Assembly: GCA_040182905.1 (NCBI GenBank)
Contig: JARQWU010000047.1
Coordinates: 1-49,006 of the forward strand
Direction of reading: 5' to 3'
DNA: 49,006 nt
Source of the DNA: Barthelona sp. PAP020
Lineage: Eukaryota
Position numbers and translations under genes: made by a program. The notes below the pieces were generated by a model. It had not been told where the DNA came from. It searched no databases and was given only the letters and a program-made list of their open reading frames with translations. Position 1 is the stretch's first letter; every line of letters begins with the position of its first letter. This document shows, piece by piece, positions 17,201 to 45,384 of this stretch.

Positions 17201-20200
17201 CGTTCAAACTATCGAATTTATCGGTACTGGTTCAGTTGTTTCTTTGAGTATGACCGATAATGTGCTTGTCATTGGTTTATCAGGTGTGAATACAGCCTCT
17301 TCAAATGACATTTTGAAAATTTTTAGATATTCAACATTTTCAAACTCATGGATCGAATTTCAATCACTTGAAACTCATGAGGAAATCGATGTCACCAGTG
17401 AATTTGGTCGAAGTGTTGATATAACTCCTGATGGATTGTCAATTATTGTTGGTATGTTGCGTTCTTCCGGTTATATTTCAGTATTTGACATTACGTTTGG
17501 AATTTCATCCTTTGAACATATTGCAAGTGGAATCACAAGTTGTCCCAACAATACCTATTTTGACGCAGTAACTAATAATTGTATTGCATGTCCTATTCAT
17601 CATACATGTGTCAGACAACAAGATAATTCTGTTGTTATCCAAGAATGTGACACGGATGAGTACACAGAGGACAGTTTGGTTTGTAAAATGTGTCCTTATG
17701 GTATATTTGACATTGAGTTGAATATGTGCAAGGTATCATTGATTGATACTGCTATTGGAAGTTCCAATGATGGTTTTGGACATTATGATAGTTGTTCAGA
17801 AGGGTTTGTTATTTCTGCTGATGGAACAAAGTGTATTTCTTATCTGCAATCAGATTGTGATAATGAATGTTCAAATCTTGGTGTGTGTGACGTTAGAGAA
17901 TGTCGGTGTGATTGTGAAACTGGTTATGGTCGAAGATATGAATTTGATGATATTTCAAATCTACGCTATGTTCCATATCACGATAATTCATTTGAATATG
18001 TAGATTTTGTTGCAAATAAAGCTGGATACATTTTACTGATTCATCAAAACGTTACCACAATATCTCTAACCATGTTTGGTCCACATAATTATATTGTACC
18101 TCTGAAGAATTTCAACATTCCTCGAAGGCTTTTTGTGAAAGCAGCAATATCTTTGAATAATGCGGTAATATTCACAGATTTATCTTTAGGGTATTTAATA
18201 AGTTGGAATAAAGCTGTTAATGATGGTTCAATTACAGATTTTTCATCAATAGAAATATTCATGAATTCTACTGTTGTTATTAGTGAGAAATGGTTAGTTA
18301 TTGATAGTCATGTATATAATCTAGCAGATTTAGCTGCTATTGCTTATCAAATCAATACAAATTTATGTACTTCTTTATCAAACATACCTTTAGAATATAA
18401 TGTTGAGATTTCAACAAATTATTTAATGTTTTCTTGTGTTAATCATGTAGATGATTCAATTACAGAAGGTATTGTATTCTTTTTTGAATATAATAATGAT
18501 TCATGGGGATTAAAAGAGATTTTATCTCCTGATAACAGTGATTACAAGTATTTTGGACATCCTTTAAAAATTTCAAAAGATGAAACTGAATTAATTGTTG
18601 GTTTTGAAAAAGGTTTATTGTTTTATGAAAGACAAACCACCGGTTGGGTGATTAAGAATAAATTGATCACTGGAAAGCCTGTAATTACGGTTGACTTTTC
18701 AGCAGATCGATTATTAATTGCTGATGAGGAAAATTTATCCATTTTCCAACGAGATGGTTTGATTTTGACAAATATTTGGACGTTTTCAATGTTGTCAAAT
18801 TCTGTTAGTTTTGATAACCCCAGAATTTCAATGTTGAAAAATCGAGTTGCAATTCTTGTGAATAACACGTTTGTAAGTCTTTTAAAAGAAACTTGTAATA
18901 CTTGTATTTCCCCTCTTATTTATGATTCATTAGAAAACAATTGTGTTCCAACATATGCTTCATCTTTGATTTGTGAAGATGGTTATTTTGATAATTTTGG
19001 GGAATGTCAACAGTGCGATGGACCATACATTTGTATTTCAAATACTAAACAATCGTGTCCAAATGGAACAACTCCAGCAAATAATCGTACAAAATGTGTT
19101 GAATGTCCATCAGGTCGTTTTTGTGTTGAAGGAGAGTTTCCTCAAATTTGTCCAATAAATCAGGCACCTTTTCCCATTGTTGCTGCGGATCATTGTGAAC
19201 AATGCTCTTCTGGATACTATGGAAACGGTATCGAATGTGTGTTGTGTCATGAACCTTATGTATGTACAAATGGATACAGGGAATTTTGTTCCTCTGGTCA
19301 AAAACCTGCCGGAATTGATTCTTGTACTAACTGTATTTTGCCAGAATTATGTCCTGATGGGTTTGTGACGTATTGTCCTGCTGGACAATATGCAGTTTCA
19401 TTAACTCAATGCAATACATGTCCAGATGGTATGGTTTGTACTGGAGATTCTGCTCCTACAGGTTGTGCCAGTAATCAGATTATTTCACCTGATCGTACAG
19501 AGTGTCTTTCTTGTCCAACAGAAAATTATTGTATTGATGGGGTTGTATACTCTTGCAACCAAGGATATACCCCTAATGTTACTCACACCGGTTGTGAAGA
19601 ATGTCCTCAAAACCGAATTTGTCTTTATGGATATGCTGAGGCCTGTCCAGAAGGTTCACTTCCTGATGCTTCACAAACCTATTGTGATGTTTGTCCAGTT
19701 GGAAAAATTTGTATAAATGGGTATGAAATGGGTTGTGATGCTGGTACATTACCAAATGAATCTCAAACTGAGTGTGTTTCTTGTCCTGCAAACAGCATTT
19801 GTGAGGATGGATTCGCTGCTGATTGTCCTTCTTTATATGCTCCTAATAGTGATCAAACCGCTTGTATCAGTTGTCCAACAACAAACATTTGTCCAAATGG
19901 ATATATTGAAACATGTCCCAGTGGACAAATGCCTAATTCCTTTTTGTCTTATTGCATTGTATGTGAACAGTATCATTATTGTGCCAATGGTTATGCTGAA
20001 CAGTGTCCAATTGGAAAAATGCCTAGTGTTGATCAGACAACATGTGTTGATTGTTATGAGGGGTATGCTTGTTCACCAGGTGTCGCAATTACTGAATGTA
20101 TTGGAACTACTTATGTTAATAATGTGTTGGGGATTTGTGATGCCTGTCCCACTGGACATTATTGTGAAAATGGTCAAGTAAAGACATGTTTGAGTGGTTT

Positions 20201-23200
20201 TGAACCGTCTGTAGATCAATCATCATGTGTTTCTTGTTCAGTTGGAAAGAATTGTTTGAATGGAGTTGCTGAATCATGTAATTCCGGTTTAATGCCAAAT
20301 GAAGAACATTCTGACTGCGTTAAGTGTTTGGACAATATGATATGTGTTGATGGGATTCCTCAAGCATGTCCTTCAGGATTTTCAGCAAATTATGATCAAA
20401 CAGCTTGTGTTGCCTGTGCGGCAGGTTTTATTTGTCCTTCAGGATATTTGGAGACTTGTCCTACAGGATATCGTCCCAAAGATACTGTGAGCTGTGAAGA
20501 AATTATGTTAAGTTGTCCAGATGGTACTGTTCCAAACGGTGAATTTACTGAATGTTTAATTTGTCCATCGAATCATATTTGTAGAGATGGTATCGCGTCA
20601 GTTTGTTCTGCAGGTTATCAACCTGATATTAATAAGATAAATTGTATTGAATGTGAAATGCATAAAGTATGTCCCAATGGGGTGCCTGTTTCATGTTCTG
20701 CCAACAAGTATGATTCAGAAGATAACATTCGTTGTGAAGAGTGTATTTCCAATCGAATATGTCCAAATGGATATTTGGAAGAATGTCCATCTGGTTTTAT
20801 TCCTAGTGAGAACGGAAATGATTGTGTCACATGTCCTGTTGGACATGTGTGTAATGATGGATTAACTTCCCTTTGTACTTCTACCACTATACCTGATTCA
20901 AGCAATACCAGTTGTATATCTTGTCCGATTGGTAAAATTTGTGTTGAAGGTATTGCATACACATGTACTGCAACCAATATGGTGCCTTCTTTAGATCAAA
21001 GCAGTTGCGTTCCTTGTGATGATTGTTTATTTGAGTTCGTACCTGTTTATTTGCCAAAAGGATTGACTAATCGAACTATTGAAGTAAAACTTCACAAAGA
21101 AGTAATCGTTACTCATGGTCCGTTCCTCATTTTACCTTCATTTGGTTTAAATTTGACATTGATGTCTCATTATGATGATAAGTATGTTTTTGAATTTCCA
21201 TCTATTTTTGACACGAGTTATTTAAGTGATTCAGACACTATTGAAGGAAATTTTGTATATTCTTTAGATAGTTGGTTGAATACATTGGAGCCTATCAAGA
21301 TATACAGTAATCCGATCTTTTTATCTGTTGAACCTTCATCATTACCATGTGATTCCACTAGAACAGTAAAGTTAAGTGGGTTAAACATTCAAATTTTGTA
21401 CAATCCAATTCTAGTAAAGCTTCAGAACCCTGCTACGTCATGGGAAACCATTGTAAATGGTACCATTGATGAAAATGCTAATTACATTATATTTGACCAT
21501 CCTCCCATGAATTTAACGGAAGAATATGAGATATTGCAGATAATAGCCTCATTGAACAATCGAGATTTTCCTTTGAATGGCATGTCATTTACACGTTATC
21601 AAAAACCAGAAGTTTTATCGTTAGAGCCTTCAGAAATTGTCTCTTATGGAGGGGAAAACGTAATTATCACTGTATCTTCGTTATTCAAATCTTCGAATGT
21701 TATTCTTGGGTTATTTTATTTAAATGAAGCACAGACGACATCAGAAATAAGTGAATTTTCCAGAATCAGTGTGCGATTCATTGCTGGTAACACAATATTG
21801 ATCACAACTCCTGTATTAGACTCAACTATTGACAAGTATTATCCAGTTCTTTCATTGAATGGTGAAGACTTTGATCTGAAGATTAATTCTAGCTCCAAGT
21901 ATTTGACCATTGATGACAGTAATTTTTTGGAGTTATCCGGATTAACACCACAGGCTGTTATTCATCCATGTTCCGATACTTCCTCTGTTGAATTTCAATT
22001 AATTAGCAGTCATGCAAATGAAGATCTTTTTGCTAACATAACAACATACGATAGTGAAGGTAGTTTAAAGAATTTTTATCGAGCTGTTGAAAAAATTGGT
22101 TTAAATACGTACAGATTGACGTTTGAAGATGTCAGTTGTAGATATTACAAAAACGCATTGTATGTGAACTTTGTTCCATACTTTAATTCAATAACCACTG
22201 TAATTCAAGTTCAAACAGTTAGCTTTTACTCCATTGCTGCTATATTTGATGACATTTTTCCAAAAGTCAGTCCTCAAGTTGGTGGAACTATTTGTAATAT
22301 AACTGGTGCTAATTTCAAAATATTGGATTTGAAAGCTCGTGTTATGATAGGCCAATATGAGGTGAATACTGAAATCAATCAAACATCTAATCTTATCTCC
22401 TTTGTTATACCTTCAATTCCAGTTCCAACTGAATTAAACATATCCGTATCTTTAGATGAAGCTAGTTGGATATCAACAGGATTGAAAATAACTTTTGAAG
22501 GGTGTGTCATGGGATATTATGCGCCAACTTATAAATTTGCATGCCAACCATGTCCAAAAGGGTATTACATTGATGTTGAACATGCAACTTCTTGTAAGAA
22601 ATGTGAAGTTGGCACGTATAATGAGTTTGAAGGTGTCACTTCTTGTATATCATGCCCGGGAAACGCTACTTCTGATGGAGCTTCTTCAAATTTGACTGAT
22701 TGTCGCTGTAAAATTAATTATTACGGTATTTATGGTGAAGAATGTCATCCATGCCCTTCAGGTGCAACATGTCCTGAGGGATCAATCCATCCGATTCCTG
22801 ACCCAGGATATTGGGCAAGTCCAACAGATTTAAATACAGTTATTCATTGTATCCCTGAGGCTGCTTGTAGTGGTGGAAATTCAACAGCAGAAAATGCCAC
22901 ACTTTTGAGCAGTATGTGTATAAATGGGTTTACTGGTGATCGTTGTGCTACTTGTGCTGTTGGTAGCTATATAAACAGTGATGATGAATGCAAAGTTTGT
23001 CCTGATATTGGTTTTTTCAGCTATATTCTCTCTCTTGTTGTATCATTTATAGTTGCTTTCGCATTGATTTGTTTGACCAAAATTTCAGATCAAGATGAAG
23101 CTCCTGATGAGACCTTTGAAACTGGTGCTCGAGCATTAGATGCCATTGAAGACATGGGTACAGGGGCTATTTCCAAAGTGTTATTGACTGCCTGGACAGC

Positions 23201-24623
23201 TTTAAGACAAAACGCCTCATTTTTTACGATTGGTATTAATTTTGCACAGGTCACTGCAATGTTGCGCAATTTTAATTTTGCTTGGCCTGAGAGCTTGAAG
23301 AAGATTTTCAATTTGTTAAGTAATTTTGACTTCAATATCAAGCTTGTGTCCCCTTCTTGTCTTTTTGCGGTTGGTTTTGTTCAACAAACGTTTTTACAAC
23401 TTGGCTTGCCAATTCTATTCATTATTATATATATCATTCTATATTTTACACTTCGTCACAAGATGAAAGTCGATAACAAATTGGCTCAATGGTTTCGAAA
23501 TGTTTTGGCGGCATTTATATTATTGATGGTATACCTCTATCAGTTTTTAGGCGGTTCAGCACTGGATTATTTTGATTGTACCACATTAGAGAATGGAGTT
23601 AGTGTGGTGACTAATTCTGCTGATATTGTATGTGGTTCACCTTATCATACATCCAACATGTGGTTACCCACAATTTCTGTGATTGTGTATATATTCGGTA
23701 TTCCTCTATGTTTCCTTTTTGCTTTGTTATATTTCAGCAAGAAGAATAAATTGGAAAACCCTGCTGTCAAACAAACAATGGGTAAATTGTACGAAAACTT
23801 TGTTCCAGAATTTGCCTATTGGGAAACCTTCGTTATGTTAAGAAAGTTGATCATTTTGCTTTGTATTGTATTTTTGGCGACAAGTGAAACAGACAAAGCT
23901 TTGTTATCTGTATGCTTTTTATTTTTAGCTTTGTTGGCTCATACTTTTATTAGACCATACAAATCACCCAAATTTGATCTTGTTGAATTTGCATCGTTAT
24001 TAACATCCATGATTGTGCTATTTACTGGTATTGTTATGGATCATGCTCAGGTTTCCAGTCTTGTAAAATCATTGACAAATGCATTCAGTGTTTTATCAAT
24101 CCTTTTCACCGTTGTCATGTTTATAATGGTAGTTTGGACCAATATCAAACCTATAAAATGGTTTGATAATTTATTCCCAGCAGATGAAAAGAATCGGGAA
24201 CCGATGTTATTTTCTAAAGATATTCCCCGTTTAGAACTGGAAAAATTGAAGATAGATGATGAATGTGACGATTTAAAATCCACGAAAGAAAAAGAGAATT
24301 CAGCATCAGACACAGATGATAGCATTTCTGATTTGGATTCTGTGTTGGACATTCATAAGACTCAAAGATTCAATTTGAAACCTCAGGATTCAGCACAAAA
24401 TTTAACTTCTGAATTTGTTGAATTTATTAATGGCAAACACATATATTCAGTTGATTCTCCAAAGAATGATGTTGTTACACCAGATACTCCGATCAAAAGC
24501 GTTTCCCAACAGTTCAATTTTGCTGAATTAGCTTCATCAACTGATGAGGACACGCAATTCTCATTCACACAAAGTAATCAACTGTTAAATTTGAAAAACA
24601 TTGGAGAAATAGATTCAGATTAA
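14205..24623 (+). CDS. giant cell-surface multi-pass membrane protein: signal peptide, propeller-like blocks, EGF-like module, Cys-rich repeats, IPT/TIG-like domains, ephrin-receptor-like Cys repeats, TRP-like multi-TM region, acidic tail (3472 aa)
   Basis: Hydrophobic N-terminus; FG-GAP-like strings (YFGKFLS, EFGRSVDI, YFGHPLKI); CSNLGVC..CRCDCETGYG; LSVEPS, LSLEPS..SYGGENVII and FPKVSPQVGGTICNITGANF; CQPCPKGYY..CKKCEVGTYN; ~8-9 hydrophobic segments with LYENF..YWETFVMLRK and RPY motifs. Confidence 0.85.
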   Translation: MERIGLYGFLLLIIVFFNCFQLIYGNKITEKSTYRIFENRCEYPLEPGFKLVKTIKGSNINEYLGETKIEFCDEFIIIHSKQENMINIYRKNTFTYIQSLYLGTSTDFAAVDDTIAVGYGLDDKKIEFYMFNRTLSQFTLFQTYYDPNNMYFGKFLSAGSGRFVIAGQTFFSLNVFMFSPTENLWKNVFEMNTTSLVDIDITSIKMFDHEFLVYLNDTTVKRYVFDVFNNSYYWLETVNYNSSRVICTSSFLNTFTCDYDIHGLMYQIHHYDYGDNIISYDLNDNIAVVLQIKQSNFEVFAIVLSLSDGLHPQQIMKIELDYYTDYQTVSLSEDNEYIVFFRNGTDNVGINYVYYLSCLYSTSICSKDTKNCRCEQDNSVYDWQFLGTKEFLGYPQIVLTNPSFEVISNDFSSTIEIYRYNDHLDMKSVHKSYPQSDSVVLTPFGIVQGYKNEKKVNGSLINMILKEECNNFGKRMVSGLKIFGVIGDCPYIYLFSDNSNQTIDLDFIPSDSCYFAILEEYILINSTDYLYIYDYFGVLFQKIALFDISSDPSDLSIIAIDSIPKFQIFIGNLFIGYKQWIFNDVLNIFELNENEFDFCSEEDTYNLVDIQLYASNHLSQLNILCIYKNDYNNDHLTKIESFIQYNTTFKLKNSIKKHVSTVLTSSSNFYSNIKGFTFDDYFFISNATHIDIFHLGCLGCKEGFYPLNKCNRQYNISQASYDIVDGIFPINGYESLFTETMFSTVSGTTNFAYEVVYNSFLDTLLVGQRVDTSSGKAFSILQRNSSDLSSFSLKYFHSANSYEYVPVHMSYSTAFIAVSSSFVSTGEYIVRLYIYVDSSKSWNFVFDLRKANVDTSLLNSGTPASMTFGYQSVFFENILFISEKTSYIHVFKFMFDISNNKISYEHMKSIFIDSVSSLVIKRHSKGLAVCLPDERTVRIYDMEDLDVYHTFTALSLTTYTFVDFSISGKFASIGYTKSGESYNVYVDIFKRQSDSSWINVQTIEFIGTGSVVSLSMTDNVLVIGLSGVNTASSNDILKIFRYSTFSNSWIEFQSLETHEEIDVTSEFGRSVDITPDGLSIIVGMLRSSGYISVFDITFGISSFEHIASGITSCPNNTYFDAVTNNCIACPIHHTCVRQQDNSVVIQECDTDEYTEDSLVCKMCPYGIFDIELNMCKVSLIDTAIGSSNDGFGHYDSCSEGFVISADGTKCISYLQSDCDNECSNLGVCDVRECRCDCETGYGRRYEFDDISNLRYVPYHDNSFEYVDFVANKAGYILLIHQNVTTISLTMFGPHNYIVPLKNFNIPRRLFVKAAISLNNAVIFTDLSLGYLISWNKAVNDGSITDFSSIEIFMNSTVVISEKWLVIDSHVYNLADLAAIAYQINTNLCTSLSNIPLEYNVEISTNYLMFSCVNHVDDSITEGIVFFFEYNNDSWGLKEILSPDNSDYKYFGHPLKISKDETELIVGFEKGLLFYERQTTGWVIKNKLITGKPVITVDFSADRLLIADEENLSIFQRDGLILTNIWTFSMLSNSVSFDNPRISMLKNRVAILVNNTFVSLLKETCNTCISPLIYDSLENNCVPTYASSLICEDGYFDNFGECQQCDGPYICISNTKQSCPNGTTPANNRTKCVECPSGRFCVEGEFPQICPINQAPFPIVAADHCEQCSSGYYGNGIECVLCHEPYVCTNGYREFCSSGQKPAGIDSCTNCILPELCPDGFVTYCPAGQYAVSLTQCNTCPDGMVCTGDSAPTGCASNQIISPDRTECLSCPTENYCIDGVVYSCNQGYTPNVTHTGCEECPQNRICLYGYAEACPEGSLPDASQTYCDVCPVGKICINGYEMGCDAGTLPNESQTECVSCPANSICEDGFAADCPSLYAPNSDQTACISCPTTNICPNGYIETCPSGQMPNSFLSYCIVCEQYHYCANGYAEQCPIGKMPSVDQTTCVDCYEGYACSPGVAITECIGTTYVNNVLGICDACPTGHYCENGQVKTCLSGFEPSVDQSSCVSCSVGKNCLNGVAESCNSGLMPNEEHSDCVKCLDNMICVDGIPQACPSGFSANYDQTACVACAAGFICPSGYLETCPTGYRPKDTVSCEEIMLSCPDGTVPNGEFTECLICPSNHICRDGIASVCSAGYQPDINKINCIECEMHKVCPNGVPVSCSANKYDSEDNIRCEECISNRICPNGYLEECPSGFIPSENGNDCVTCPVGHVCNDGLTSLCTSTTIPDSSNTSCISCPIGKICVEGIAYTCTATNMVPSLDQSSCVPCDDCLFEFVPVYLPKGLTNRTIEVKLHKEVIVTHGPFLILPSFGLNLTLMSHYDDKYVFEFPSIFDTSYLSDSDTIEGNFVYSLDSWLNTLEPIKIYSNPIFLSVEPSSLPCDSTRTVKLSGLNIQILYNPILVKLQNPATSWETIVNGTIDENANYIIFDHPPMNLTEEYEILQIIASLNNRDFPLNGMSFTRYQKPEVLSLEPSEIVSYGGENVIITVSSLFKSSNVILGLFYLNEAQTTSEISEFSRISVRFIAGNTILITTPVLDSTIDKYYPVLSLNGEDFDLKINSSSKYLTIDDSNFLELSGLTPQAVIHPCSDTSSVEFQLISSHANEDLFANITTYDSEGSLKNFYRAVEKIGLNTYRLTFEDVSCRYYKNALYVNFVPYFNSITTVIQVQTVSFYSIAAIFDDIFPKVSPQVGGTICNITGANFKILDLKARVMIGQYEVNTEINQTSNLISFVIPSIPVPTELNISVSLDEASWISTGLKITFEGCVMGYYAPTYKFACQPCPKGYYIDVEHATSCKKCEVGTYNEFEGVTSCISCPGNATSDGASSNLTDCRCKINYYGIYGEECHPCPSGATCPEGSIHPIPDPGYWASPTDLNTVIHCIPEAACSGGNSTAENATLLSSMCINGFTGDRCATCAVGSYINSDDECKVCPDIGFFSYILSLVVSFIVAFALICLTKISDQDEAPDETFETGARALDAIEDMGTGAISKVLLTAWTALRQNASFFTIGINFAQVTAMLRNFNFAWPESLKKIFNLLSNFDFNIKLVSPSCLFAVGFVQQTFLQLGLPILFIIIYIILYFTLRHKMKVDNKLAQWFRNVLAAFILLMVYLYQFLGGSALDYFDCTTLENGVSVVTNSADIVCGSPYHTSNMWLPTISVIVYIFGIPLCFLFALLYFSKKNKLENPAVKQTMGKLYENFVPEFAYWETFVMLRKLIILLCIVFLATSETDKALLSVCFLFLALLAHTFIRPYKSPKFDLVEFASLLTSMIVLFTGIVMDHAQVSSLVKSLTNAFSVLSILFTVVMFIMVVWTNIKPIKWFDNLFPADEKNREPMLFSKDIPRLELEKLKIDDECDDLKSTKEKENSASDTDDSISDLDSVLDIHKTQRFNLKPQDSAQNLTSEFVEFINGKHIYSVDSPKNDVVTPDTPIKSVSQQFNFAELASSTDEDTQFSFTQSNQLLNLKNIGEIDSD
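19056..21026 (+). repeat. intragenic array of ~20 Cys-rich 30-aa repeats (C-x12-C-x2-C-x5-C-x7)
   Basis: Examples: CPEGSLPDASQTYCDVCPVGKICINGYEMG / CDAGTLPNESQTECVSCPANSICEDGFAAD / CPSLYAPNSDQTACISCPTTNICPNGYIET. Confidence 0.9.
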
Positions 24624-25161: not shown

Positions 25162-26373
25162 TTAGTCATCATCATCATCGTCATCAACGCCACAACTTTG
25201 TTCATTCATAAATGAGTGCATATTACCACCATTGGTTTCATTGATGTCAACCAAATCCCAACATGTATCCGCAATCATCTTGAACTCCTCTTCATTCATG
25301 CAAATACCAGCAGCTATCAATTGTCTGATGGTTTGAGTATCCATATTCACAGCAAAAAGATTCGACACCACATTTCCACCATCCTTTGATAACTCTATGA
25401 GTTCAGTTTGATTTGAGGGGTTATATTGAGGGGCAATTGAGTAAACTTTGATGCTATGGCCTTTACATTTTCCACATGATAACTCTCTCTTATCAGGGGA
25501 AAGAGCAAAGGAAAAGTCATAAGGATCACAACCACAATGTACTTTTTGAATTTCCTCAAAACTATCTACATTGTACGACGTAATATAACCATCACCAGAC
25601 ATAATAAGTAAGACGCTAGGTGTTAAGAAATTAATGCAATATACTTCACCGCCCACATTAAAGGTATGTATAAGTGATCCATCGTCCATATTCCAGAGTT
25701 TGACCTCGCTTGAACGATCACCAGTAGCAACTATTCTTTCTGTTGGGTGGAAATCAATAGCTTCAACACGATTTGTATGATTGAATTGATGCAAAAGAGA
25801 AAAATTGTCGGGGTTAACCAACATTGCAAATTTATTCCCACCACCAATCAAAAGATGTTTACCGTCACATGAAAGCTTTACTTTACAAATCCAGCTGGCA
25901 TTAATTTCGGTTGCCAAAACAACATTACCATCGTGTATATCCCATTTCTTCAAATATCCATCGCCACAACCAGTATATACATAATTTGAACAATTGGAAA
26001 AAACTACTGCACCAACAGAAGAATCATTATTTAATGTAGACAAAATGGAGAAATCTTGAAGGTTGTATATAATAATGGACCAAGAACTTGAACATGTTGC
26101 TAGTTTTTGTCCATCTGGTGAAAAGGCAACACTATAAACACTGCCTCCATGATCTTTCAAGGAACGATTTAGCGTTCTAGTTTCAACATCAATTACATGA
26201 GCTTGTGGAAAACTACCAATGACTAAATGTTTGCCATCCAGTGAATATTTGCAATCAAACATGTAATCAGAAACCAAATCCTCAATTTCACTCACACTAC
26301 TTTCATCAATTTTAGGAGGGAGTATACCATTGATTATTTTTCTCACCAATTCCAATCTTGAGTCAGAATACAT
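25162..26373 (-). CDS. WD40 beta-propeller protein with C-terminal helical module, paralog A (403 aa)
   Basis: WD repeats (DHGGSVYSVAFSPDGQKLAT; GCGDGYLKKWD; TGDRSSEVKLWN). Colinear with 32911..34107. Ends in poly-Asp. Confidence 0.92.
   Translation of the reverse strand: MYSDSRLELVRKIINGILPPKIDESSVSEIEDLVSDYMFDCKYSLDGKHLVIGSFPQAHVIDVETRTLNRSLKDHGGSVYSVAFSPDGQKLATCSSSWSIIIYNLQDFSILSTLNNDSSVGAVVFSNCSNYVYTGCGDGYLKKWDIHDGNVVLATEINASWICKVKLSCDGKHLLIGGGNKFAMLVNPDNFSLLHQFNHTNRVEAIDFHPTERIVATGDRSSEVKLWNMDDGSLIHTFNVGGEVYCINFLTPSVLLIMSGDGYITSYNVDSFEEIQKVHCGCDPYDFSFALSPDKRELSCGKCKGHSIKVYSIAPQYNPSNQTELIELSKDGGNVVSNLFAVNMDTQTIRQLIAAGICMNEEEFKMIADTCWDLVDINETNGGNMHSFMNEQSCGVDDDDDDD
25226..25446 (-). repeat. 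221-bp near-identical segment, inverted copy of 33835-34055
   Basis: Manual alignment gives 7 mismatches in 221 bp and no indels. Confidence 0.9.
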
Positions 26374-32910: not shown

Positions 32911-34107
32911 ATGTCAACTAATACAAATATAGAATTGATAGAACGAAATATTCAAAATATTTTAGCACCAAAAATTGATGAAAAAAGTATGAAGGAGATT
33001 GAGGATGTTGTTTTTGATTATGCAAATGCATGTGAATATTCAAAAGATGGTGAATATGTTGGAATTTCAAGTTATGATGATGTGTTTATAATTGATACAA
33101 AAACTGAAGAAGTGAAGTTCACATTGAGTAATCAACAAGTATTTGTTTATTTCACATTTTCCAAAGATGGAAAAATGTTAGCAACTGGTTCTATTGATAA
33201 TACTATCATGATATATAGTCTTCCAGATTTCTCCATTTTGAAAAAATGGAGAAATGATTGCCATGTTTCCGAGATATGTTTTTCAGCTTGTTTAAATTAT
33301 ATATTTTCGGTTGATCACAATGGAAAACTTAAGAAATGGGATATAAATACTGATACTGTTGTTTTAGAAGAAAGAGTACATTCTGGGGCAGTTTGGAATG
33401 TAAATCTTTCGGCAGATGGTAAAGTTATAATGACTGGTGGTTATGATAAGACTCTTAAGTTGATTGACCCAGAAAATTTTTCAATAGTTGCTGTATTTGA
33501 CCAAGGGGAGAAAGTTAGTGCTGTTGTTTGTCATCCAACAAAGAGAATTATTGCTGCTGGTGATATATCATTCAAAGTCAAACTATGGAACATGGATGAC
33601 GGATCACTTATTCATGAATTCGTTCTAGGAGGTCAAGTTTGGTCTCTTCATTTTCTTACTTCAAATATTCTATTTATTATGTCTGGTGATGGTTATATTT
33701 CTTCATACAATGTGAATAGCTTTGAGGAGATTCAAAAGGTACATTGTGGTTGTGACGAGACTTGGTTTTCGTTTGCCATATCACCTGATATGAGGCAGTT
33801 GACATGTGGAAAATGTGACGAAGATATTATTAAGGTTTACTCAATTGCCCCTCAATATAACCCCTCAAATCAAACTGAACTCATAGAGTTATCAAAGGAT
33901 GGTGGACATGTGGTGTCGAATCTTTTTGCTGTGAATATGGAAACTCAAACCATCAGACAATTAGTAGCTGCTGGTATTTGCATGAATGAAGAGGAGTTCA
34001 AGATGATTGAGGATACATGTTGGAATTTGGTTGACATCAATGAAATCAATGGTGGCAACATGAATGAGTTTGTTGAACAAACGAATGAAAGTGATTCTGA
34101 CACTTAA
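32911..34107 (+). CDS. WD40 beta-propeller protein with C-terminal helical module, paralog B (398 aa)
   Basis: WD repeats (FSKDGKMLATGSIDNTIMIY; VHSGAVWNV..TGGYDKTLKL; KVKLWN). Colinear with paralog A. Confidence 0.92.
   Translation: MSTNTNIELIERNIQNILAPKIDEKSMKEIEDVVFDYANACEYSKDGEYVGISSYDDVFIIDTKTEEVKFTLSNQQVFVYFTFSKDGKMLATGSIDNTIMIYSLPDFSILKKWRNDCHVSEICFSACLNYIFSVDHNGKLKKWDINTDTVVLEERVHSGAVWNVNLSADGKVIMTGGYDKTLKLIDPENFSIVAVFDQGEKVSAVVCHPTKRIIAAGDISFKVKLWNMDDGSLIHEFVLGGQVWSLHFLTSNILFIMSGDGYISSYNVNSFEEIQKVHCGCDETWFSFAISPDMRQLTCGKCDEDIIKVYSIAPQYNPSNQTELIELSKDGGHVVSNLFAVNMETQTIRQLVAAGICMNEEEFKMIEDTCWNLVDINEINGGNMNEFVEQTNESDSDT
33835..34055 (+). repeat. 221-bp near-identical segment, inverted copy of 25226-25446
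   Basis: Manual alignment, ~97% identical. Confidence 0.9.
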
Positions 34108-34728: not shown

Positions 34729-37026
34729 TTATTTATGCGAAAAGTTCGCATATGTGGTGTTGCGACGATGATGAATCCTCTTTCCTGCTATAATAAATAG
34801 ATCATCACAAAAATGAATAATTCCCTTCACTGTCAATGATATCCCCAAACTGATATTATATTTACCTTCTTTGACATGTTTCTCTGTTGGTAAAACAGCA
34901 GATAAGAATGGTGTACCAGCATATTGTAATGGCGTCAAATGTTCAAATATTGAATCACACCCAAGTAATTTTAAAGCTGTTTTTTCAAGTTTATCTTGTT
35001 CATTTATGAATTCCTGTGATAAGCCTTTTTCCTCATTCATTTTTTTGACTTCTTCTTTAATCCTTTCCAACTGACGCATCCCAGTCAGAGTTTCACAAAC
35101 ATCGAACAACATTTCCAGATTCTTTTCATCATTGTCTTGTTCAAATCTTTCAAAAACTATTGGCCACAAACGTACCAGGAACTTTTGTACCCAAAATTTC
35201 TTTTCACTTTTCAATAACTGTAATTCATCAACAAATGAGAAACGATTGTCACTGATTAGTTTTCGGCGGTGTGGAATCATTGTTTCTTTTTGATTAAAAC
35301 TTAAATCAGAAAGAACAATAGCATTTTTTAAATATCTGGTGTTTATATCAGAAGAAATGTTAATATTCAAATGGTTGCCTCTAACAATATGTAAAATACT
35401 TGATAAAACATCACTGAACATCCAATTATCATTTCCTTCAACAAGATAACCTTGATGAATAAGATCTGTGATGTTTATTTCTGGATTCTTATTGATATTT
35501 TTGAAATCTCGAATTTCAGCCGCAATTCGAGGATCAAGGCTCATTTTCGACTTGAGAGATTCAATACTTTCAGCAAATTCCAAATCCATGTTTTCAGAAT
35601 CTCTAGCATTAACTATTTTATTTTTTGTTTTTGGATTTCTTCTTGCTTTAACACTTTTACGATATCTGTTTTCATCCATTTCTTGAGCTTCCTTATTTTT
35701 TTTGAATTTTGTGTCTGTCTTTCCATTAGTCCTATGATTTTCAGCATCATCAACATAATCATTGTTTTCTTCGCGAATAAAAGGAGATAATCCATAAGAG
35801 TTCATGTTAAAAAGAGATTTTGATATATCCGGTTTTTCTGCCAAAAGAATCCTTAACGTATCAAAATTTGTGGGAGTTTCAATCATTTTTATTTCATATC
35901 TATGCATAATGACACAATATAAGAATTGAATTGGGTTTTTCAAAAAAATCTTAACTATGTCAAATATAGAAAAATGTTCACTATCATTAGAATCTTCAAC
36001 TGAATCATCAAAAAATATGTTCAAACAATCCATCGAAATATTTAACATTTCCATCAAAAAATTATTTTCAAATTGCTCAAACAGTTCTTCATCCTTACAT
36101 AGATACAAAATTGGCAAACTATTTGTAAAACTTTCGCTCAATGTGTTCAATTCATCAATTTCCTTCAAAATAAAATTTGGTGGTGCAAATGAGTACTTCC
36201 CATTGATGTCATCACAGAAACACCAGTCATTCATTGTCTTGATTATAGAATAAAACAAAAGTTCTTCATTTAAATCGTTGACGTAAACAATCAAATTTGG
36301 TGGTTGATTCTCATCATAAGTATGAAACACACAACTTGCTAAAAACTTGAATAGATTCATAAATCCACTGTAATTAACATTTGTTTCAAGGTTATTAACA
36401 TGCATACACAGTATATCTTTCATTGCCTCAAAATTCTCAAAATTAAACATTGAAGCATTTCTACCAACTGGAAATGAACAAAAGATCTCTCTTGTTTCGG
36501 TTTCATCATCATCACTATTTGATTCGTTCCCACTATCTTCCTTAAAATTGTCATCATCGTCAGTTTCGTCTTCTTCCTCTTTTTTCTGTTCTTCCTCTTC
36601 TTTTTCTTCTTCTTTTTGTACTTCCTCCTCTTGTTCGTGTTCGTGTTCTTCTTGTTCTTCTTCTTTTTCAATGTGTTCTCTTAAAATGAATTCATAAGTA
36701 TTCCCAAAACAATCAATAAAACAATTTCTTGAATGTTTATAATATGATAAATTATCAACAACATATGGTATTATGGAAGAAGAATTCACACTGTCATTTT
36801 TATCATTTTCCATAAATAGTGTATAATGATCACTTAACAATTGAATATCATTCATGATAAATCCACAATTTTGATTTTTATCATTCTTTGATCTGAAAAC
36901 AATTCTATATTCATCATTTAATTTGATCTTATACAAATTCCCAAAATGATTCTTTAATTCCTTTGTAAAATCATTTAATTTTCCTTGTACAACACTTTGT
37001 ATAATAAGAAAATCGTTTGATTGCAT
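34729..37026 (-). CDS. hypothetical protein with long acidic tract (765 aa)
   Basis: Long ORF. Glu/Asp-rich segment at ~aa 116-180 and a basic NLS-like stretch RYRKSVKARRNPKTK. No family recognised. Confidence 0.8.
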   Translation of the reverse strand: MQSNDFLIIQSVVQGKLNDFTKELKNHFGNLYKIKLNDEYRIVFRSKNDKNQNCGFIMNDIQLLSDHYTLFMENDKNDSVNSSSIIPYVVDNLSYYKHSRNCFIDCFGNTYEFILREHIEKEEEQEEHEHEQEEEVQKEEEKEEEEQKKEEEDETDDDDNFKEDSGNESNSDDDETETREIFCSFPVGRNASMFNFENFEAMKDILCMHVNNLETNVNYSGFMNLFKFLASCVFHTYDENQPPNLIVYVNDLNEELLFYSIIKTMNDWCFCDDINGKYSFAPPNFILKEIDELNTLSESFTNSLPILYLCKDEELFEQFENNFLMEMLNISMDCLNIFFDDSVEDSNDSEHFSIFDIVKIFLKNPIQFLYCVIMHRYEIKMIETPTNFDTLRILLAEKPDISKSLFNMNSYGLSPFIREENNDYVDDAENHRTNGKTDTKFKKNKEAQEMDENRYRKSVKARRNPKTKNKIVNARDSENMDLEFAESIESLKSKMSLDPRIAAEIRDFKNINKNPEINITDLIHQGYLVEGNDNWMFSDVLSSILHIVRGNHLNINISSDINTRYLKNAIVLSDLSFNQKETMIPHRRKLISDNRFSFVDELQLLKSEKKFWVQKFLVRLWPIVFERFEQDNDEKNLEMLFDVCETLTGMRQLERIKEEVKKMNEEKGLSQEFINEQDKLEKTALKLLGCDSIFEHLTPLQYAGTPFLSAVLPTEKHVKEGKYNISLGISLTVKGIIHFCDDLFIIAGKRIHHRRNTTYANFSHK

Positions 37027-37511
37027 ATTTAAAGAAACAATTTGTTAAAGGAACTTTTTTTTTTCTTTTCGAAATGAATTTGTTTTAAACACTTTTATTT
37101 TAATCAGTAAAACTACTCAGTGAGACAATTTTGTTCACTTTTTTTAAGTATCCAAGCGGAAGAGATGAAGAAAATCTTTCGTAAAATTTTTTATCATGTT
37201 TGATGGGTTTTCTTCACAAATACTTTTCTTTCATTAAACAAAAAAGGTGTTTTTAAACCAATGGACCATTTAATCAAATATAATATTGCTGTTGAATGAT
37301 CAAATTCAAATGGAGTAAAATTTGATAAAGAAATTTTGAGAAGTTCTTTTTGGGCAATAAATAACTACTGTTTTTGTTTGAAGATTATTTATTGTCATTT
37401 TCTGAGAAACATTTTTTGAAAAGAAATCATGTTTTTGAAATATTGTAATTTGTAAATGAATCCATCAACCACTTTAATATTTTTTTTACTTGTTTAAACA
37501 ACATTTAATTA

Positions 37512-38024
37512 ATGGAAAACACAGAACATATTGAAGAAATGAAAGAAGAGGAAAGAATTCCTTCTTTTTCTATTGATCATACCAAGTTAAAAAGAGGAAT
37601 CTATGTTTCCAGAACTGATTTGGTTGGGAATGAAGTCATATATACTTTTGATATTAGAATGAAAGAGCCAAACAAAGAACCACCTATGGATATTCAAGCC
37701 TTACATACTATTGAGCATTTGGGAGCTACATTTTTAAGACAACATCCTAGATATAAAGACTTGACCATTTATTTTGGTCCTATGGGTTGCAGAACTGGTT
37801 GTTATCTTATTTTCAGGGGTAATGAACTTACTTCCAATGATATGGTCCCAGTCATCACCGAAATGTTCCAGTATATTGCTGATTTTGAAGGAGTTGTTCC
37901 TGGACTTCATCCTGCTGAATGCGGTTATTATTTGTCTCATGATTTACCCATGGCCAAATATGAAGCCATTAGATATTTGGAAGTTTTATTGAACATTCAA
38001 CCGGAAAATCTTCAATATCCTTGA
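37512..38024 (+). CDS. luxS: S-ribosylhomocysteine lyase (autoinducer-2 synthase) LuxS
   Basis: SFSIDH, FDIRM..PN, HTIEH (H65/E68/H69), GPMGCRTG (C93), VPG..PAECG (C137), HDL..AK, and the C-terminal NLQYP typical of the Bacteroidetes/Clostridia-type subgroup. Confidence 0.97.
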   Translation: MENTEHIEEMKEEERIPSFSIDHTKLKRGIYVSRTDLVGNEVIYTFDIRMKEPNKEPPMDIQALHTIEHLGATFLRQHPRYKDLTIYFGPMGCRTGCYLIFRGNELTSNDMVPVITEMFQYIADFEGVVPGLHPAECGYYLSHDLPMAKYEAIRYLEVLLNIQPENLQYP

Positions 38025-38173
38025 GTCTTCAGAAATTACAAAAGTAGTCTTTATAAATTTGTGTGAAGATTTTTCTCTTTTAAAGCAACAAAAAAAAAAA
38101 AATTACAGATTTACTCGAGCATTCACAAAAAAGTGTTAGCCTCAAAATAAATGGAAAAATTAGAAATATTTAG

Positions 38174-41100
38174 CTAAATGATACTCTCTTCTTCTGGATT
38201 GGTCATGGTGCTGTTTGAATTGGCTAAATTTGGAGATTTAAATGGAAAATTCATGTCTTCAAACGGTATCAACTGTTCCATTTCAATTGAAGGTGAATTT
38301 ACTTCCTCAGTGTTTCTTTTTGTTTCTTCTTCATATTCTGTATCATATTCTGTGATTTCATTAATTTCCACTAATTCTGCAAAATCATCAATTTTAAACG
38401 CTTCATTCTCTTGGTCTTCTTTTGTTTCTCTTTCTTCATCTTCTAAATCATCATTGTCAAACTCGTCATACATATCGTTGTCAACGTCATTATCCTCGTT
38501 GTCAAGGTCAGAAAGATCTAATTCTAAGACTTTTTTTCGCATAGGAGGAGGAGGTTCTGGAACTGCAATCAAAGGTAGATAAGAAATCATATCTTTCCTT
38601 TCATTGTGTTGAGGTTTATACAATAAATCCAAATTTAGCTCAGCCTCTTCCATGGAGGTTTTTTCATACAAAGGATTTAAATCAGGGAATAAAGGTTCTA
38701 AAGGTAAAACATCAGTTAATTCCGGTTCTTCAATCACTGCTCGAATAAATTCAGGAAGTTTGGGTTGATAATCAACGATTGAAGAACAATAAAAAACTCC
38801 ATCAAATAATTTGAATTGCATACAAACAGTATTGCATTCCAAAGGATAATTTTTTTTGATAAATCGTTCATTGTATGATTGAATATTTTTTAAATCCATT
38901 AAGCAATTGCAGATGGATGTATCTTCCTGGAAAATTCGATTTTTTTTAACAAATAGACAAACAAAATAAGAACTTGCCACATATTTTGGATTATCAAGGA
39001 ATTCCTGTACTTTCCTTTCACATTTACTGGTGTTGAAGATAGCACTGAAATTCTTGGTATAAAGTTTCGAGTTTCTGAAATCCAATGTGATAATTGGGGA
39101 TGTGAATAAACTTTCAACTTCAGAAGGCTCAAAATATGCCAAGTCGTTTACATCACCACCACAAGATTCATAGATGTTGAAATAAACATCAATTTTCATT
39201 TCAGTGATCGCTTTAAGAATAGGTTCATCAAATTTTCGACTCAAATCAACCTGTAAGAATCCCAGATGTGCTATGGCTCTGAAACCCAACATATTACTTA
39301 TCTGTTGAACACTCAAGATTTTGGCAGCCTCAATTGCCTTTGAATCAATAGTATCAGGGGCCCATTCTTCGATAGAAGCTACGTACTTCTTCAAAGCCAA
39401 CACATGATCATTTTGATTTTCTTTGTCAATAAATAACTGTTTTGCTATTCTTGTTTGTTCTTCAATGAAATGATCCAATATATCAATACGTTCTTCCAAA
39501 AAACCTATTTTAGTCATTTGAATATTGTTATGACGACGATATTTATCTGCTTGGTCGATTTGTTTATCAACTTCAATAACTAATTGCTCTCTAAATTTGT
39601 CGAAATATTGCCTAAATCTTGCAATAAGTGTATCTTTGAGATAAAACATCTGAGTCTTTAAATATCCGATTTCATCTTCAACTTTTTCATTGCTCAAGTT
39701 CAAAATTTTTTCCATTGCAAGATTGAATTCATGCTGAATCGGCTTAAAATTTTCTGTTAGACGATAATTTTCCTTGCTTAACACCTCAATACTTTTGTTT
39801 TTATTTTCAATTAATCTAGCAAGTTTCCTATATTTAATGGCATGACTTTTTTTCAATGCTGAGATTTGTTGCTCATATTCTTCAATCAATAAGTCCATTT
39901 TTGCTGACCAACCATCATCAATCTTTTCTACAACTTGTCTTTGTTGCTCTTCCATGTCGTTCTTCAAATTTCTAAACTTCTCTTGCAATTCCGTCACATA
40001 TTGTGTTAATCTTTCATTGTTTTTTTCAGCAAGATTCAAATTTAATTCTAATTGAGTGTTCTTCTTGTTTAAAACGTTGTTTTCTTTCAAAGTCATCTCA
40101 TTAGAATTCTGAATTTTGTCATTCTTTTCTTTCAACAATTCAATTTCCTTTTCAAAGCTCTTTACATCTTCTGATAGCTCTTGATTTACAGAAATAATAT
40201 TTGAGTGTTCAATTTTTAAATCTTTATATTGTTGTTCAACTATCTTCAACTCTTCATTTTTCTTTTCAATTTTCATGCACTTTTCAATGTATTTTTGTAT
40301 ATTTTGATAATTTTCAAAAAGTTTTGAATGTTTTTCTTCAAAATTATCCAACTCATTCTTCAATTTTTGTATTTCTTTCAAACAATCATTGTTCTCCTCT
40401 TCTTTTCTTCCAATGATTCTATTTAACATTTGAATTTCACTCTCATATTCATAAAATAATCGTTGAGTTTCAACATCTTTCTTATCTTCAACAACATTTG
40501 TTCTGGTAGGTACCTTCAACTTGGTATGATCTTTTGATAATGATACGCTTCTTGAAACTAGTTTATCATTTTCATGTCCATCAACATTGAATTTAAGTGT
40601 ATTGTCAAATTTAGCCTTCAAATAAGGTTTATCAGCTTGATTTTGTACATTTAAATTCATTTCTTTTTTATCACTATCTTTTGTTATATTAGCATTGACA
40701 ACATCGCCAGTTGAAACTGTACCTTCCTTTATTGTTTTAGAATCTTGAACATTTTGTGCAGATTGTAACAAAACATGAGTGAGAGTGCTGTCATTAGTAG
40801 TATCAACACATTTTTCAATTTCAACAATGTCTTCTTTTTCAATAACAGAAAAGCTCAAATCAACATTTAATTTTCCTCTAAAAATCCTTAAACAAAGATC
40901 AATAAAATCAATCACGCAAATTTCTCCTGAAATGTTGCTAATTTTTCCCAAAGTTTTTTCAATATCATTAGGACACATGTCTCCTAAAATCATTTGAGCA
41001 AATAACATGAAAAAATCGAGATCAAAAAAATCTTTGTACAAATAATGATGTTCTTTTGAATTTATTCTTTTACATTCTTGTAAAATTACAGTGCTAATAG

Positions 41101-41500
41101 ATGCTACAAAGTCAAATTCATTCAAAGATAAAGTATCAGACACAAAATAACAAAATAAATTTATTAATTTGTCGTGATCTCGAAAAACTCGCAAAGCACA
41201 ACAAAATTCATATAGACTTTGTTCAAATAAAATTTTATTGTCAGAAAATGCCTTTTGAAAAAAATCAAAAACAACATCAGATATTTTCAATTGTTTCTCA
41301 ATTGATTCATCGATGATTTCTGTGTAATTTTCTGTTCTGTATTGTAAAATTTGTTCAATTAACTTTCTTGTCCAATTTATCGTCTGTAATGAAGGTTGAA
41401 TTCGTTCAAGATATTTGCATTTCTTTAATATTTGTTCAAATGTAAATTTGTTTAAGATTTCATCTCTTGTTATGCATAATAAGTCAGTTTTCATGCTCAT
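38174..41500 (-). CDS. coiled-coil protein with N-terminal helical domain (loosely TSNAXIP1-like) and acidic C-terminus (1108 aa)
   Basis: Long ORF. WTRKLIEQI...FDFFQKAF...LYEFCCALRVFRDHDKLINLFCYF block, heptad region ~aa 345-700, PEPPPP and Asp/Glu tail. Family call tentative. Confidence 0.75.
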   Translation of the reverse strand: MSMKTDLLCITRDEILNKFTFEQILKKCKYLERIQPSLQTINWTRKLIEQILQYRTENYTEIIDESIEKQLKISDVVFDFFQKAFSDNKILFEQSLYEFCCALRVFRDHDKLINLFCYFVSDTLSLNEFDFVASISTVILQECKRINSKEHHYLYKDFFDLDFFMLFAQMILGDMCPNDIEKTLGKISNISGEICVIDFIDLCLRIFRGKLNVDLSFSVIEKEDIVEIEKCVDTTNDSTLTHVLLQSAQNVQDSKTIKEGTVSTGDVVNANITKDSDKKEMNLNVQNQADKPYLKAKFDNTLKFNVDGHENDKLVSRSVSLSKDHTKLKVPTRTNVVEDKKDVETQRLFYEYESEIQMLNRIIGRKEEENNDCLKEIQKLKNELDNFEEKHSKLFENYQNIQKYIEKCMKIEKKNEELKIVEQQYKDLKIEHSNIISVNQELSEDVKSFEKEIELLKEKNDKIQNSNEMTLKENNVLNKKNTQLELNLNLAEKNNERLTQYVTELQEKFRNLKNDMEEQQRQVVEKIDDGWSAKMDLLIEEYEQQISALKKSHAIKYRKLARLIENKNKSIEVLSKENYRLTENFKPIQHEFNLAMEKILNLSNEKVEDEIGYLKTQMFYLKDTLIARFRQYFDKFREQLVIEVDKQIDQADKYRRHNNIQMTKIGFLEERIDILDHFIEEQTRIAKQLFIDKENQNDHVLALKKYVASIEEWAPDTIDSKAIEAAKILSVQQISNMLGFRAIAHLGFLQVDLSRKFDEPILKAITEMKIDVYFNIYESCGGDVNDLAYFEPSEVESLFTSPIITLDFRNSKLYTKNFSAIFNTSKCERKVQEFLDNPKYVASSYFVCLFVKKNRIFQEDTSICNCLMDLKNIQSYNERFIKKNYPLECNTVCMQFKLFDGVFYCSSIVDYQPKLPEFIRAVIEEPELTDVLPLEPLFPDLNPLYEKTSMEEAELNLDLLYKPQHNERKDMISYLPLIAVPEPPPPMRKKVLELDLSDLDNEDNDVDNDMYDEFDNDDLEDEERETKEDQENEAFKIDDFAELVEINEITEYDTEYEEETKRNTEEVNSPSIEMEQLIPFEDMNFPFKSPNLANSNSTMTNPEEESII

Positions 41501-42745: not shown

Positions 42746-44236
42746 ATGGCTCTTGACCCTACGATTGGAGATCCATATCAAACTGAAATTTCAATTGAAT
42801 TAAATGAAAAGTACAGTAATACTGTTAACGGTAACAATAACAACAGCAAAAAAAGAGTAGATTGGGTTGATTGGTACAGAATCATCCTCAATCATCTTGT
42901 TGTTTTTGGACATTGGTTTCGATTTTTTGATCGGCATTTTGATGTGATTAAATTACATAATGGTGAAGTTGCACCACATATTGAGGTAATGATGATGATA
43001 GGACATGCTTTTTTAATGTTAAGTTTCTTTTTTGTGTCAGGTGTGTCATTAACTTTGATGTCAAAGAGTAAAAAGTCATACTTCAAGTTATTTTCTTCCA
43101 GATTTATTAGATTATCTGTTCCTTTAATTGGAGGATTTTTGTTAATGGTTATTCCATCCAAGTATTTACAAAGAAATATGGAAGTGCAGTGTCCTGCTGC
43201 TCCTTACGCTGCTCCTGATAATGTGTTTGGATATTATTTTTTCTATTTTCGATACTGTATGGTATCTCAAGGATTGAATTGGCTGTGGTTTTTACCCATG
43301 TTATTTCTTGACACGGCATTATACTTTCCACTAGTTTACAGATCAATGAAAAATCTTCACGAGGAACGGAATCTTGGTAAGACATTTATTTTGTTCATCT
43401 CTTACCTTTTGGCTTTTTCATTGGTTTATTTGTTTATTCATACACCATACACAGTTTTGATTGCAGACTTTATTCTTTTTTCAGTTCTTTGTTGGTTGTC
43501 CTATTTTTATCAATATTTAAACAAATATGTGGTGGGCATTATTGCTTTGTTGTCTTCTTTCATGCCACATATCATTTTAAACATGAAGTTATGTTCACCA
43601 CCGAATGAAATGAATTTATGCAATTTGATCAGAGTTGCAGCTGGTTTCAATGATGCTATGATGGCTGGTGCTATTTTTTGGATGTATAAAGATGAAATTT
43701 TTGATTTGTGGGATGTAATTAAGAGATTTGTCATCCCAGTTATGCCTATTGTACTTATGCTTTCTGGTGGACTAATTTTGCCAATGCAAAGTGGTGAACC
43801 AAATAATTATGACTTAACTATTGGTATTTATGCTACATACACAGAAAATCAAACTTGGAGAATCAATTATTCTTGTTTCGGTATCACTCTAGTAATATTC
43901 CTCTTTTTAATCATGCAAAAAGGTGTCCCTGGATTTTATTACAACATATTGGGAGATTATTTGCAAAGAACTGGTGTTGGTGTCTATATTGTTCATCCAA
44001 TGTGTCAAGTAACAATGGCCGTAATTTTGAAAAAGTTTAACTTAACTTTTACCCAAAACTTTGTATGGATGGGTGTAGCATCTTTTGGCTTCACACATTT
44101 ATTGTTATTCCTTGTTCAGTTTGTTCCCGGTCTAAGATATTGTCTTGGTGTTATGGGTCCCGGTGAATTGGAGGTTAAACAAAGTTTGAAAATTGAAGAA
44201 AAAAGCAAAGAACCTCATTTTGCGACTGAAATTTAA
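42746..44236 (+). CDS. acyltransferase-3 family membrane O-acyltransferase (OpgC/MdoC-like) (496 aa)
   Basis: AT3 motifs RVDWVDWYR..LVVFGH (R-x10-H), FFFVSG, RFIRLSVP, LWFL, YIVH; roughly 10-12 hydrophobic segments. Confidence 0.85.
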   Translation: MALDPTIGDPYQTEISIELNEKYSNTVNGNNNNSKKRVDWVDWYRIILNHLVVFGHWFRFFDRHFDVIKLHNGEVAPHIEVMMMIGHAFLMLSFFFVSGVSLTLMSKSKKSYFKLFSSRFIRLSVPLIGGFLLMVIPSKYLQRNMEVQCPAAPYAAPDNVFGYYFFYFRYCMVSQGLNWLWFLPMLFLDTALYFPLVYRSMKNLHEERNLGKTFILFISYLLAFSLVYLFIHTPYTVLIADFILFSVLCWLSYFYQYLNKYVVGIIALLSSFMPHIILNMKLCSPPNEMNLCNLIRVAAGFNDAMMAGAIFWMYKDEIFDLWDVIKRFVIPVMPIVLMLSGGLILPMQSGEPNNYDLTIGIYATYTENQTWRINYSCFGITLVIFLFLIMQKGVPGFYYNILGDYLQRTGVGVYIVHPMCQVTMAVILKKFNLTFTQNFVWMGVASFGFTHLLLFLVQFVPGLRYCLGVMGPGELEVKQSLKIEEKSKEPHFATEI

Positions 44237-44616: not shown

Positions 44617-45384
44617 TCAAATCCTCCTTAAATCGCTAATTTTCTCAAGACTATTTGAAATTTTTTCTAAATATTGAACAGTTTTTGATAAAGATGGTAA
44701 ATAAATAACTGAATCATCATTAACATACTTTTCCATGTCCAATCTTTTAAGTTCGAACTTTTTCAAATCGTTCTCAGATTTCTTCAATCTTTCTTCAATA
44801 TTCTCCATCTGCAAAAATTGAAATTGATTATTTGGCTTTTTTAACAAAGGAATTGATTTTTGAACATATAAATTTCTCTTTATTTCTTCAAAATCACTAG
44901 AAATCATTTTATTCAATAGATTCACTTGTGTCCTCAATTTTTCGTTTTTCTCTTTGATACAATCAATCTTTTTTTTTACTTTTAAGGCTTCTCTTTGAAT
45001 TTTTTTGAATTTGTTGTATCTTCGCCATCTTTGAATTTGAGCTTTTGCATGTAATCCAACCTTTTGTTTCATCAAGTGATCATAATGCCATCTTGCTAAA
45101 TATCGTAATTTTCTTTCATTTCGTTCAGCTTGATGATTTTCCATTCTTTTAATGGCTTCTAAAGTTTCTGACCACCAATTTGAATCTAATTGTAATTTTT
45201 CAAGCGTTAAAACATTCTCTTTACTCAATTGAACTTGAGTTTTTAATTCATGTTCCATGAAAGAAATACGATTTTGTAATCGAGAATTTTCTTCAACCAA
45301 ATTCTTATTCTTCTCTAATAAATTAATAACTTCTCTTCCTAATTGTAGTAACGTCTCATTGGTGTCAATCGATTCTTGATTCAT
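44617..45384 (-). CDS. small coiled-coil protein with a possible IQ-like motif (255 aa)
   Basis: Heptad-rich ORF; AKAQIQRWRRYNKFKK. Confidence 0.75.
   Translation of the reverse strand: MNQESIDTNETLLQLGREVINLLEKNKNLVEENSRLQNRISFMEHELKTQVQLSKENVLTLEKLQLDSNWWSETLEAIKRMENHQAERNERKLRYLARWHYDHLMKQKVGLHAKAQIQRWRRYNKFKKIQREALKVKKKIDCIKEKNEKLRTQVNLLNKMISSDFEEIKRNLYVQKSIPLLKKPNNQFQFLQMENIEERLKKSENDLKKFELKRLDMEKYVNDDSVIYLPSLSKTVQYLEKISNSLEKISDLRRI

Follow-up and report, generated by a model that had tools for sequence, protein, structure and literature searches.

An intact luxS gene lies between eukaryotic genes in a contig of the protist Barthelona sp. PAP020

The 49,006-nucleotide stretch of Barthelona sp. 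PAP020 DNA analyzed here (the window) encodes, at 37512-38024 on the forward strand, a true LuxS protein of family PF02664 whose active site and fold are intact. Within the window sequence the gene is contiguous with the eukaryotic genes that flank it. The full reading toward which we lean is that this gene came from an anaerobic bacterium of the Spirochaetales or Marinifilaceae, and that its product recovers homocysteine from S-ribosylhomocysteine in the cytosol. The window protein is a genuine LuxS, in what is probably a new domain of life for the family, with integration and a metabolic role both probable.

Results

The intron-free luxS coding sequence specifies a predicted S-ribosylhomocysteine lyase of 170 residues, recognized from its ORF, by profiles, by a structural model and by Foldseek. 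On Pfam PF02664, with a cut-off of 27, the protein scores 182.4 bits; on NCBIfam NF002604, where the cut-off is 158, its score is 205.9 bits over positions 3-158 of the 161 in the profile. Alignment to B. subtilis LuxS (1j98) pairs the metal-binding motif HxxEH (H65, E68 and H69; 37704-37718, forward strand) with H54, E57 and H58, the catalytic Cys93 (37788-37790) with Cys84, and the third metal ligand, Cys137 (37920-37922), with Cys126. The same alignment pairs S18, F19, H23, R49 and R76 with S6, F7, H11, R39 and R65; we take these conserved residues, and C93 as the catalytic cysteine, to have the roles that they have in LuxS generally. Compared with 260 homologues, the near-invariant motif residues are intact save for the substitutions T44Y, N77Q, F121Y and N139Y and one residue inserted around position 105. 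All of these changes except F121Y count against the reading that we prefer. An AlphaFold2 model built from an 86-sequence alignment has a pLDDT of 93.8 and is weak only over the first 10-20 residues, and a Foldseek search with this model ranks LuxS structures first (H. pylori LuxS, E 1.5e-13; best non-LuxS structure, E 0.058). The preliminary description, made from the sequence, had named a complete LuxS with H65, H69, C137, E68 and C93; all of these residues lie where it placed them, both profile cut-offs are passed and the modeled fold is that of LuxS.

The protein begins with an acidic extension of 12 codons (37512-37547, forward strand), delimited by alignment and by the model, in which its confidence is low. 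It is 12 residues long relative to 115 of 119 homologues and 9 relative to three others, whose start lies three residues earlier. With a net charge of -5, a mean hydropathy of -1.72 and no signal-peptide character, a targeting role for this segment is excluded, and the window LuxS is predicted to be cytosolic. The extension is thus present and acidic as described earlier, but E14 and R15 already belong to the core, which leaves it short of the 15 residues then quoted. A start further upstream is ruled out by an in-frame TAA at 37506-37508. No Shine-Dalgarno-like word precedes either luxS ATG, bearing out another part of the earlier description, whereas such a word is present in 106 of the 156 ATG-started homologous loci. 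The start context had also been called common to luxS and its neighbors. It is A/T-rich, but its hexamer from -6 to -1, TAATTA, is identical in the ORF at 44617-45384 and differs from the start context, A/T-rich as well, of most other genes.

The window contains 14 long uninterrupted ORFs in the standard code, with WD40, ankyrin and TIG domains among its Pfam matches, together with one tRNA-Gln; the long neighbors of luxS are as free of interruption as luxS itself. Upstream, the gene at 34729-37026 (reverse strand) encodes a 765-residue protein with an acidic low-complexity stretch and no exact match in the protein collection. Downstream, the gene at 38174-41500 (reverse strand) encodes a 1108-residue, coiled-coil-like protein that is an exact EukProt entry over its full length. 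This neighbor, 149 bp from luxS, is among the five of the 14 window proteins with exact EukProt entries. Neither flanking protein has a Pfam family above cut-off, so that their earlier description as eukaryote-style is upheld by the EukProt match for the downstream gene and by composition for the upstream one. The window LuxS lacks an exact EukProt entry, but this is weak evidence against the preferred reading: 8 of the 13 other ORFs lack one too, the upstream neighbor and both WD40 genes among them.

Several other genes of the window deserve mention in their own right. The WD40 genes at 25162-26373 and 32911-34107 are paralogues (57% identical), and a search with the C-terminal part of their family hit seven EukProt proteins and nothing else, with identities of 29-59% to the window genes; judged by these sequence matches, the pair is a lineage-specific expanded family. 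The ORF at 42746-44236 encodes an acyltransferase-3 membrane protein (PF01757) with an exact EukProt entry and is possibly a second transfer in the window, because PF01757 is common in bacteria. A very divergent Tad3/ADAT3-like protein is encoded at 12528-13337 (weak match to mouse ADAT3, E 0.028, and no Pfam match). The gene at 14205-24623 encodes an intron-free 3472-residue surface protein with cysteine-rich repeats, a TIG domain and, at its C-terminal end, a multi-pass membrane region.

We consider it highly probable that luxS is integrated in the host chromosome. The competing account, an assembly chimera in which a luxS fragment of a low-GC culture bacterium was joined between two host genes, seems to us very unlikely. 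The GC content of luxS (0.347) and its GC3 (0.257) fall within the ranges of the 13 other long ORFs (0.233-0.361 and 0.182-0.292), in agreement with the earlier remark that the gene is AT-rich like its neighbors, and its CAI of 0.714 falls within the host gene range of 0.627-0.759. A GC3 of 0.36 or less is also found in 46 of 156 homologues, however, which leaves room for a bacterial fragment; the chimera draws as well on the absence of LuxS from the EukProt set that contains its neighbors, and on an upstream flank without an exact database match. The codon log-likelihood of luxS is -135.4 under the pooled host model and -140.1 under the best of 150 homologous-locus models. This is a soft test: that best bacterial model is beaten by just 6 of the 13 single-host-gene models, and the pooled host model draws on far more codons.

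The DNA on either side of the coding sequence argues against a chimera. The divergent spacer (37027-37511) is 485 bp long with a GC content of 0.23 and T-runs as in host spacers, and it holds neither a Shine-Dalgarno sequence nor a pfs remnant; the convergent spacer (38025-38173) is 149 bp long with a GC content of 0.24 and an A-run. Both lie within the span of the 12 other spacers in the window (61-867 bp, GC 0.18-0.29), with homopolymer runs alike. Identity to bacterial loci at the DNA level is at most 75% over at least 200 nt and is limited to 37539-38021, such that the resemblance ends with the coding region. No repeat pairs at the junctions and no mobile-element ends were found around luxS, leaving no repeat pair to account for a mis-join. 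The N-terminal extension is non-bacterial, and the window is free of N.

The codons of luxS are distinctive in one further respect. Across the codon boxes of Ala, Val, Thr, Ser, Pro and Ile, purine-ending codons make up 7 of 55 in luxS compared with 1572 of 4219 in the host genes (p 1e-4 in a post hoc Fisher test), and the share of A-ending codons in luxS (0.11) is lower than in any of the 13 host genes or of the 46 low-GC3 homologues. Avoidance of purine-ending codons is typical of well-expressed eukaryotic genes decoded by inosine tRNAs. The pattern in luxS would fit selection for translation.

The closest proteins to the window LuxS are 66% identical (BLASTP, best 120 of 7997 scored), and in the alignment it reaches at most 67% identity to any homologue. 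The best genome locus stands at 63% (best 80 of at least 597 loci), the best metagenome locus at 62% (best 80 of at least 585), the best viral locus at 58% (n=22) and phage records below 60% (n=12). Together with the representatives examined (best 150 of 1537), these proteins, loci and records include no near-identical bacterial or viral source. The near-identity to a co-cultured bacterium that the earlier description had weighed against a genuine transfer is thus not observed among these sequences at the level of protein (67% at most) or DNA (75% at most). As separate observations, the LuxS relatives on 22 IMG/VR viral contigs (L161-L182; 40-58% identical) may be phage genes or host flanks. 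Five representatives (P0159, P0163, P0218, P0243 and P0263) are apparent LuxS-Pfs fusions, found in both orders. Another, P0164, carries Trp in place of conserved Gly at several positions, a pattern that would follow if a genome in which TGA encodes Gly had been translated with TGA as Trp.

In phylogenetic trees the window LuxS is nested among bacterial homologues, with no broad eukaryotic family. An IQ-TREE analysis of 75 rows (69 sequences left after thinning those at least 74% alike, plus six distant ones) places it on the Spirochaetota/Bacteroidota side with support of 96/81, in a tree whose bootstrap had not settled and that has no distant outgroup. A site-mixture tree joins it, at an open fork (SH-aLRT 80), to Spirochaetales entries, Spirochaeta cellobiosiphila and Labilibaculum. 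P0002, which has an internal duplication, and identical sequences were left out of the alignment for an initial FastTree, and P0169, on a long branch, was left out of the site-mixture tree. Because of its placement in both trees, the donor was likely a free-living anaerobe of the Spirochaetales or Marinifilaceae; the sequences suggest nothing finer than these two groups. The phylogeny proposed in the preliminary description as a check therefore returned bacterial ancestry and other eukaryote-like copies, but two candidate donor groups in place of a single donor. The closest known counterparts of the window protein are bacterial LuxS proteins of the subfamily found in Bacteroidetes, Spirochaetes, Fusobacteria and Clostridia, termed Cluster 1 in the available part of PMC5029033, in which the stem 'eukary' is absent. 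The proposal of lateral acquisition followed by amelioration agrees with the composition, codon use, spacers, lost bacterial signals and tree placement described here.

It is most unlikely, in our view, that luxS is integrated but silent and drifting as a recent functionless insertion. A few near-invariant residues are altered, as this would predict. Against it, the frame and active site are intact despite a divergence of at least 33% from every sampled homologue, codon use is strongly biased, and the end branch of the window LuxS (0.44, compared with a median of 0.32) was not flagged as long.

Two of the 80 best metagenome loci (of at least 585) are non-bacterial in character. In the first (L150), luxS at 2950-3480 lies on a contig with a GC content of 0.17 and adjoins a gene for a Ras-family GTPase (PF00071, 106 bits). 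The N-terminus of its product has a hydrophobic 16-residue stretch that is found in each of the 15 members listed from a cluster of 29, and the protein is possibly a secreted or vacuolar enzyme of a gut ciliate. No secreted form of LuxS was found among the bacterial homologues fetched, and no named eukaryotic relative of the L150 protein among its best 120 matches. In the second (L154), luxS at 1933-2421 lies on a contig with a GC content of 0.21, adjoins a DUF229 gene and encodes a protein without a leader; this protein belongs to a cluster of 56 members, mainly on short contigs. The L154 contig has two CCCCAAT words, a weak signal because 14 of 200 shuffles reach two, and it terminates in a permuted unit of CCCCAAT, which is the telomere repeat of rumen ciliates according to the available part of bioRxiv 2022.01.05.474053. 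We infer that both of these gut contigs are ciliate-like.

The L150 and L154 proteins both exceed the NCBIfam cut-off. The nearest relatives of L150 are Lachnospiraceae-like and those of L154 belong to a different group of Clostridia. A single eukaryotic origin of the three copies was rejected: it appears in 0% of 200 bootstrap trees, and an AU test under LG+G4, for which the three-copy group was named before the tested tree and after a FastTree, gave p 0.024. The window, L150 and L154 copies are likely to represent at least three independent gains.

Discussion

The window protein shares with bacterial LuxS (EC 4.4.1.21; PF02664; NF002604) the fold, the HxxEH motif, the catalytic and metal-binding cysteines, 60-66% identity and a score above the equivalog cut-off. 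Its gene differs from the bacterial ones in standing alone in a eukaryotic array, without pfs or a Shine-Dalgarno sequence, and in having an acidic extension of 9-12 residues and host-type codons. In bacteria, Pfs converts SAH to adenine and S-ribosylhomocysteine, from which LuxS then forms homocysteine and DPD, whereas Eukarya rely exclusively on SAH hydrolase, as stated in the accessible sections of a 2004 survey of 138 genomes (PMC524169). The eukaryotic enzyme, SahH/AhcY, resembles the LuxS route in removing SAH and returning homocysteine, but it is unrelated, acts in one step and yields adenosine and no DPD.

A Pfs/LuxS methyl-cycle route in the host is plausible. Transcription of luxS would be driven from the 485-bp divergent spacer and translation would begin at the first ATG, giving a metal-dependent LuxS dimer that would be fed S-ribosylhomocysteine by an unlinked MTA/SAH nucleosidase (Pfs). 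SAH derived from methylation would be irreversibly removed, leaving adenine and homocysteine for salvage, and DPD, the precursor of AI-2, would be an unavoidable by-product if LuxS is active. Several anaerobic protists own bacterial-type MTA/SAH nucleosidases. Although pfs adjoins luxS in 87 of 160 homologous loci, a six-frame search of the window with a 77-sequence Pfs profile recovered none (best E 1.4).

That absence could also be taken to mean that a nuclear luxS scavenges the S-ribosylhomocysteine of prey or neighboring bacteria, in a host that has retained SAH hydrolase and can do without a Pfs. Scavenging is unlikely in our estimation, even though the hydrophobic L150-type N-terminus points to at least one eukaryote that uses LuxS in a vacuole or outside the cell, and the available portion of a supplement on free-living anaerobic metamonads (PMC11316075) names SAH hydrolases but not LuxS. 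Little can be read from the missing pfs, because genes of a pathway are rarely linked in eukaryotes, and with its acidic N-terminus the window LuxS is predicted to be cytosolic, such that scavenging would require an importer.

Alternatively, luxS may have been kept for its signal, with DPD or AI-2 from the protist steering how prey or partner bacteria form biofilms, move or aggregate. We regard this as quite unlikely. It is favored by the fact that an active LuxS always produces DPD (PMC524169, sections available), and by the three or more separate gains in eukaryote-like DNA, one of them with a secretion-like start. However, no exporter, receptor or lsr genes are among the Pfam matches of the window, the window LuxS has no export signal, and even in bacteria the role of LuxS is described as largely metabolic in the same sections. 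The signaling to prey or symbionts that the preliminary description had proposed finds no support in the window. A broader version of this idea, that microbial eukaryotes living among anaerobic bacteria gained luxS on at least three occasions and themselves produce or process AI-2, by a cytosolic enzyme here and a secreted one in a gut ciliate-like lineage, strikes us as rather unlikely. If true, protists would be genuine producers of AI-2 that shape prey or gut communities.

The proposed transfer of luxS has parallels among published ones. The CAZyme transfers of rumen ciliates (bioRxiv 2022.01.05.474053, in its available part) resemble luxS in that single ameliorated bacterial metabolic genes reside in compact genomes of microbial eukaryotes, but luxS is not among the bacterium-to-protist transfers in the texts and supplements covered. 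It is absent from the available parts of PMC11316075 and of that preprint, from the text of PMC13198582, from the text and supplements of PMC6925433, and from the supplements of PMC10284877 and PMC8136499. The supplements of PMC10703272 likewise have no luxS and a single M16 peptidase label; eukaryotic 'LuxS/M16 peptidase-like' labels of this kind denote M16 peptidases, which share a fold class, whereas the window protein is a true LuxS. LuxS is handled as bacterial in the available parts of PMC13609882 and PMC12844139. The literature that we searched holds no report of a eukaryotic luxS, although supplements and subscription papers beyond that search could still name one.

LuxS is regarded as a marker of bacteria and AI-2 as their language, and a nuclear luxS would break the exclusivity of SAH hydrolase in eukaryotes. 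Nuclear luxS genes would make the two SAH routes exchangeable across domains. They would also offer a direct test of whether metabolism or signaling is the reason for the retention of LuxS, in cells without a bacterial quorum-sensing circuit. Given the ciliate-like copies, counts of luxS in gut metagenomes and metatranscriptomes may contain eukaryotic genes, and the L150 protein, with its signal-peptide-like start, is a ready target for assay. One further sequence, P0385, is of the L150 type in its N-terminal part and of the L154 type in its C-terminal part; whether assembly chimera or recombinant, this hybrid suggests a sample in which the two types are present together.
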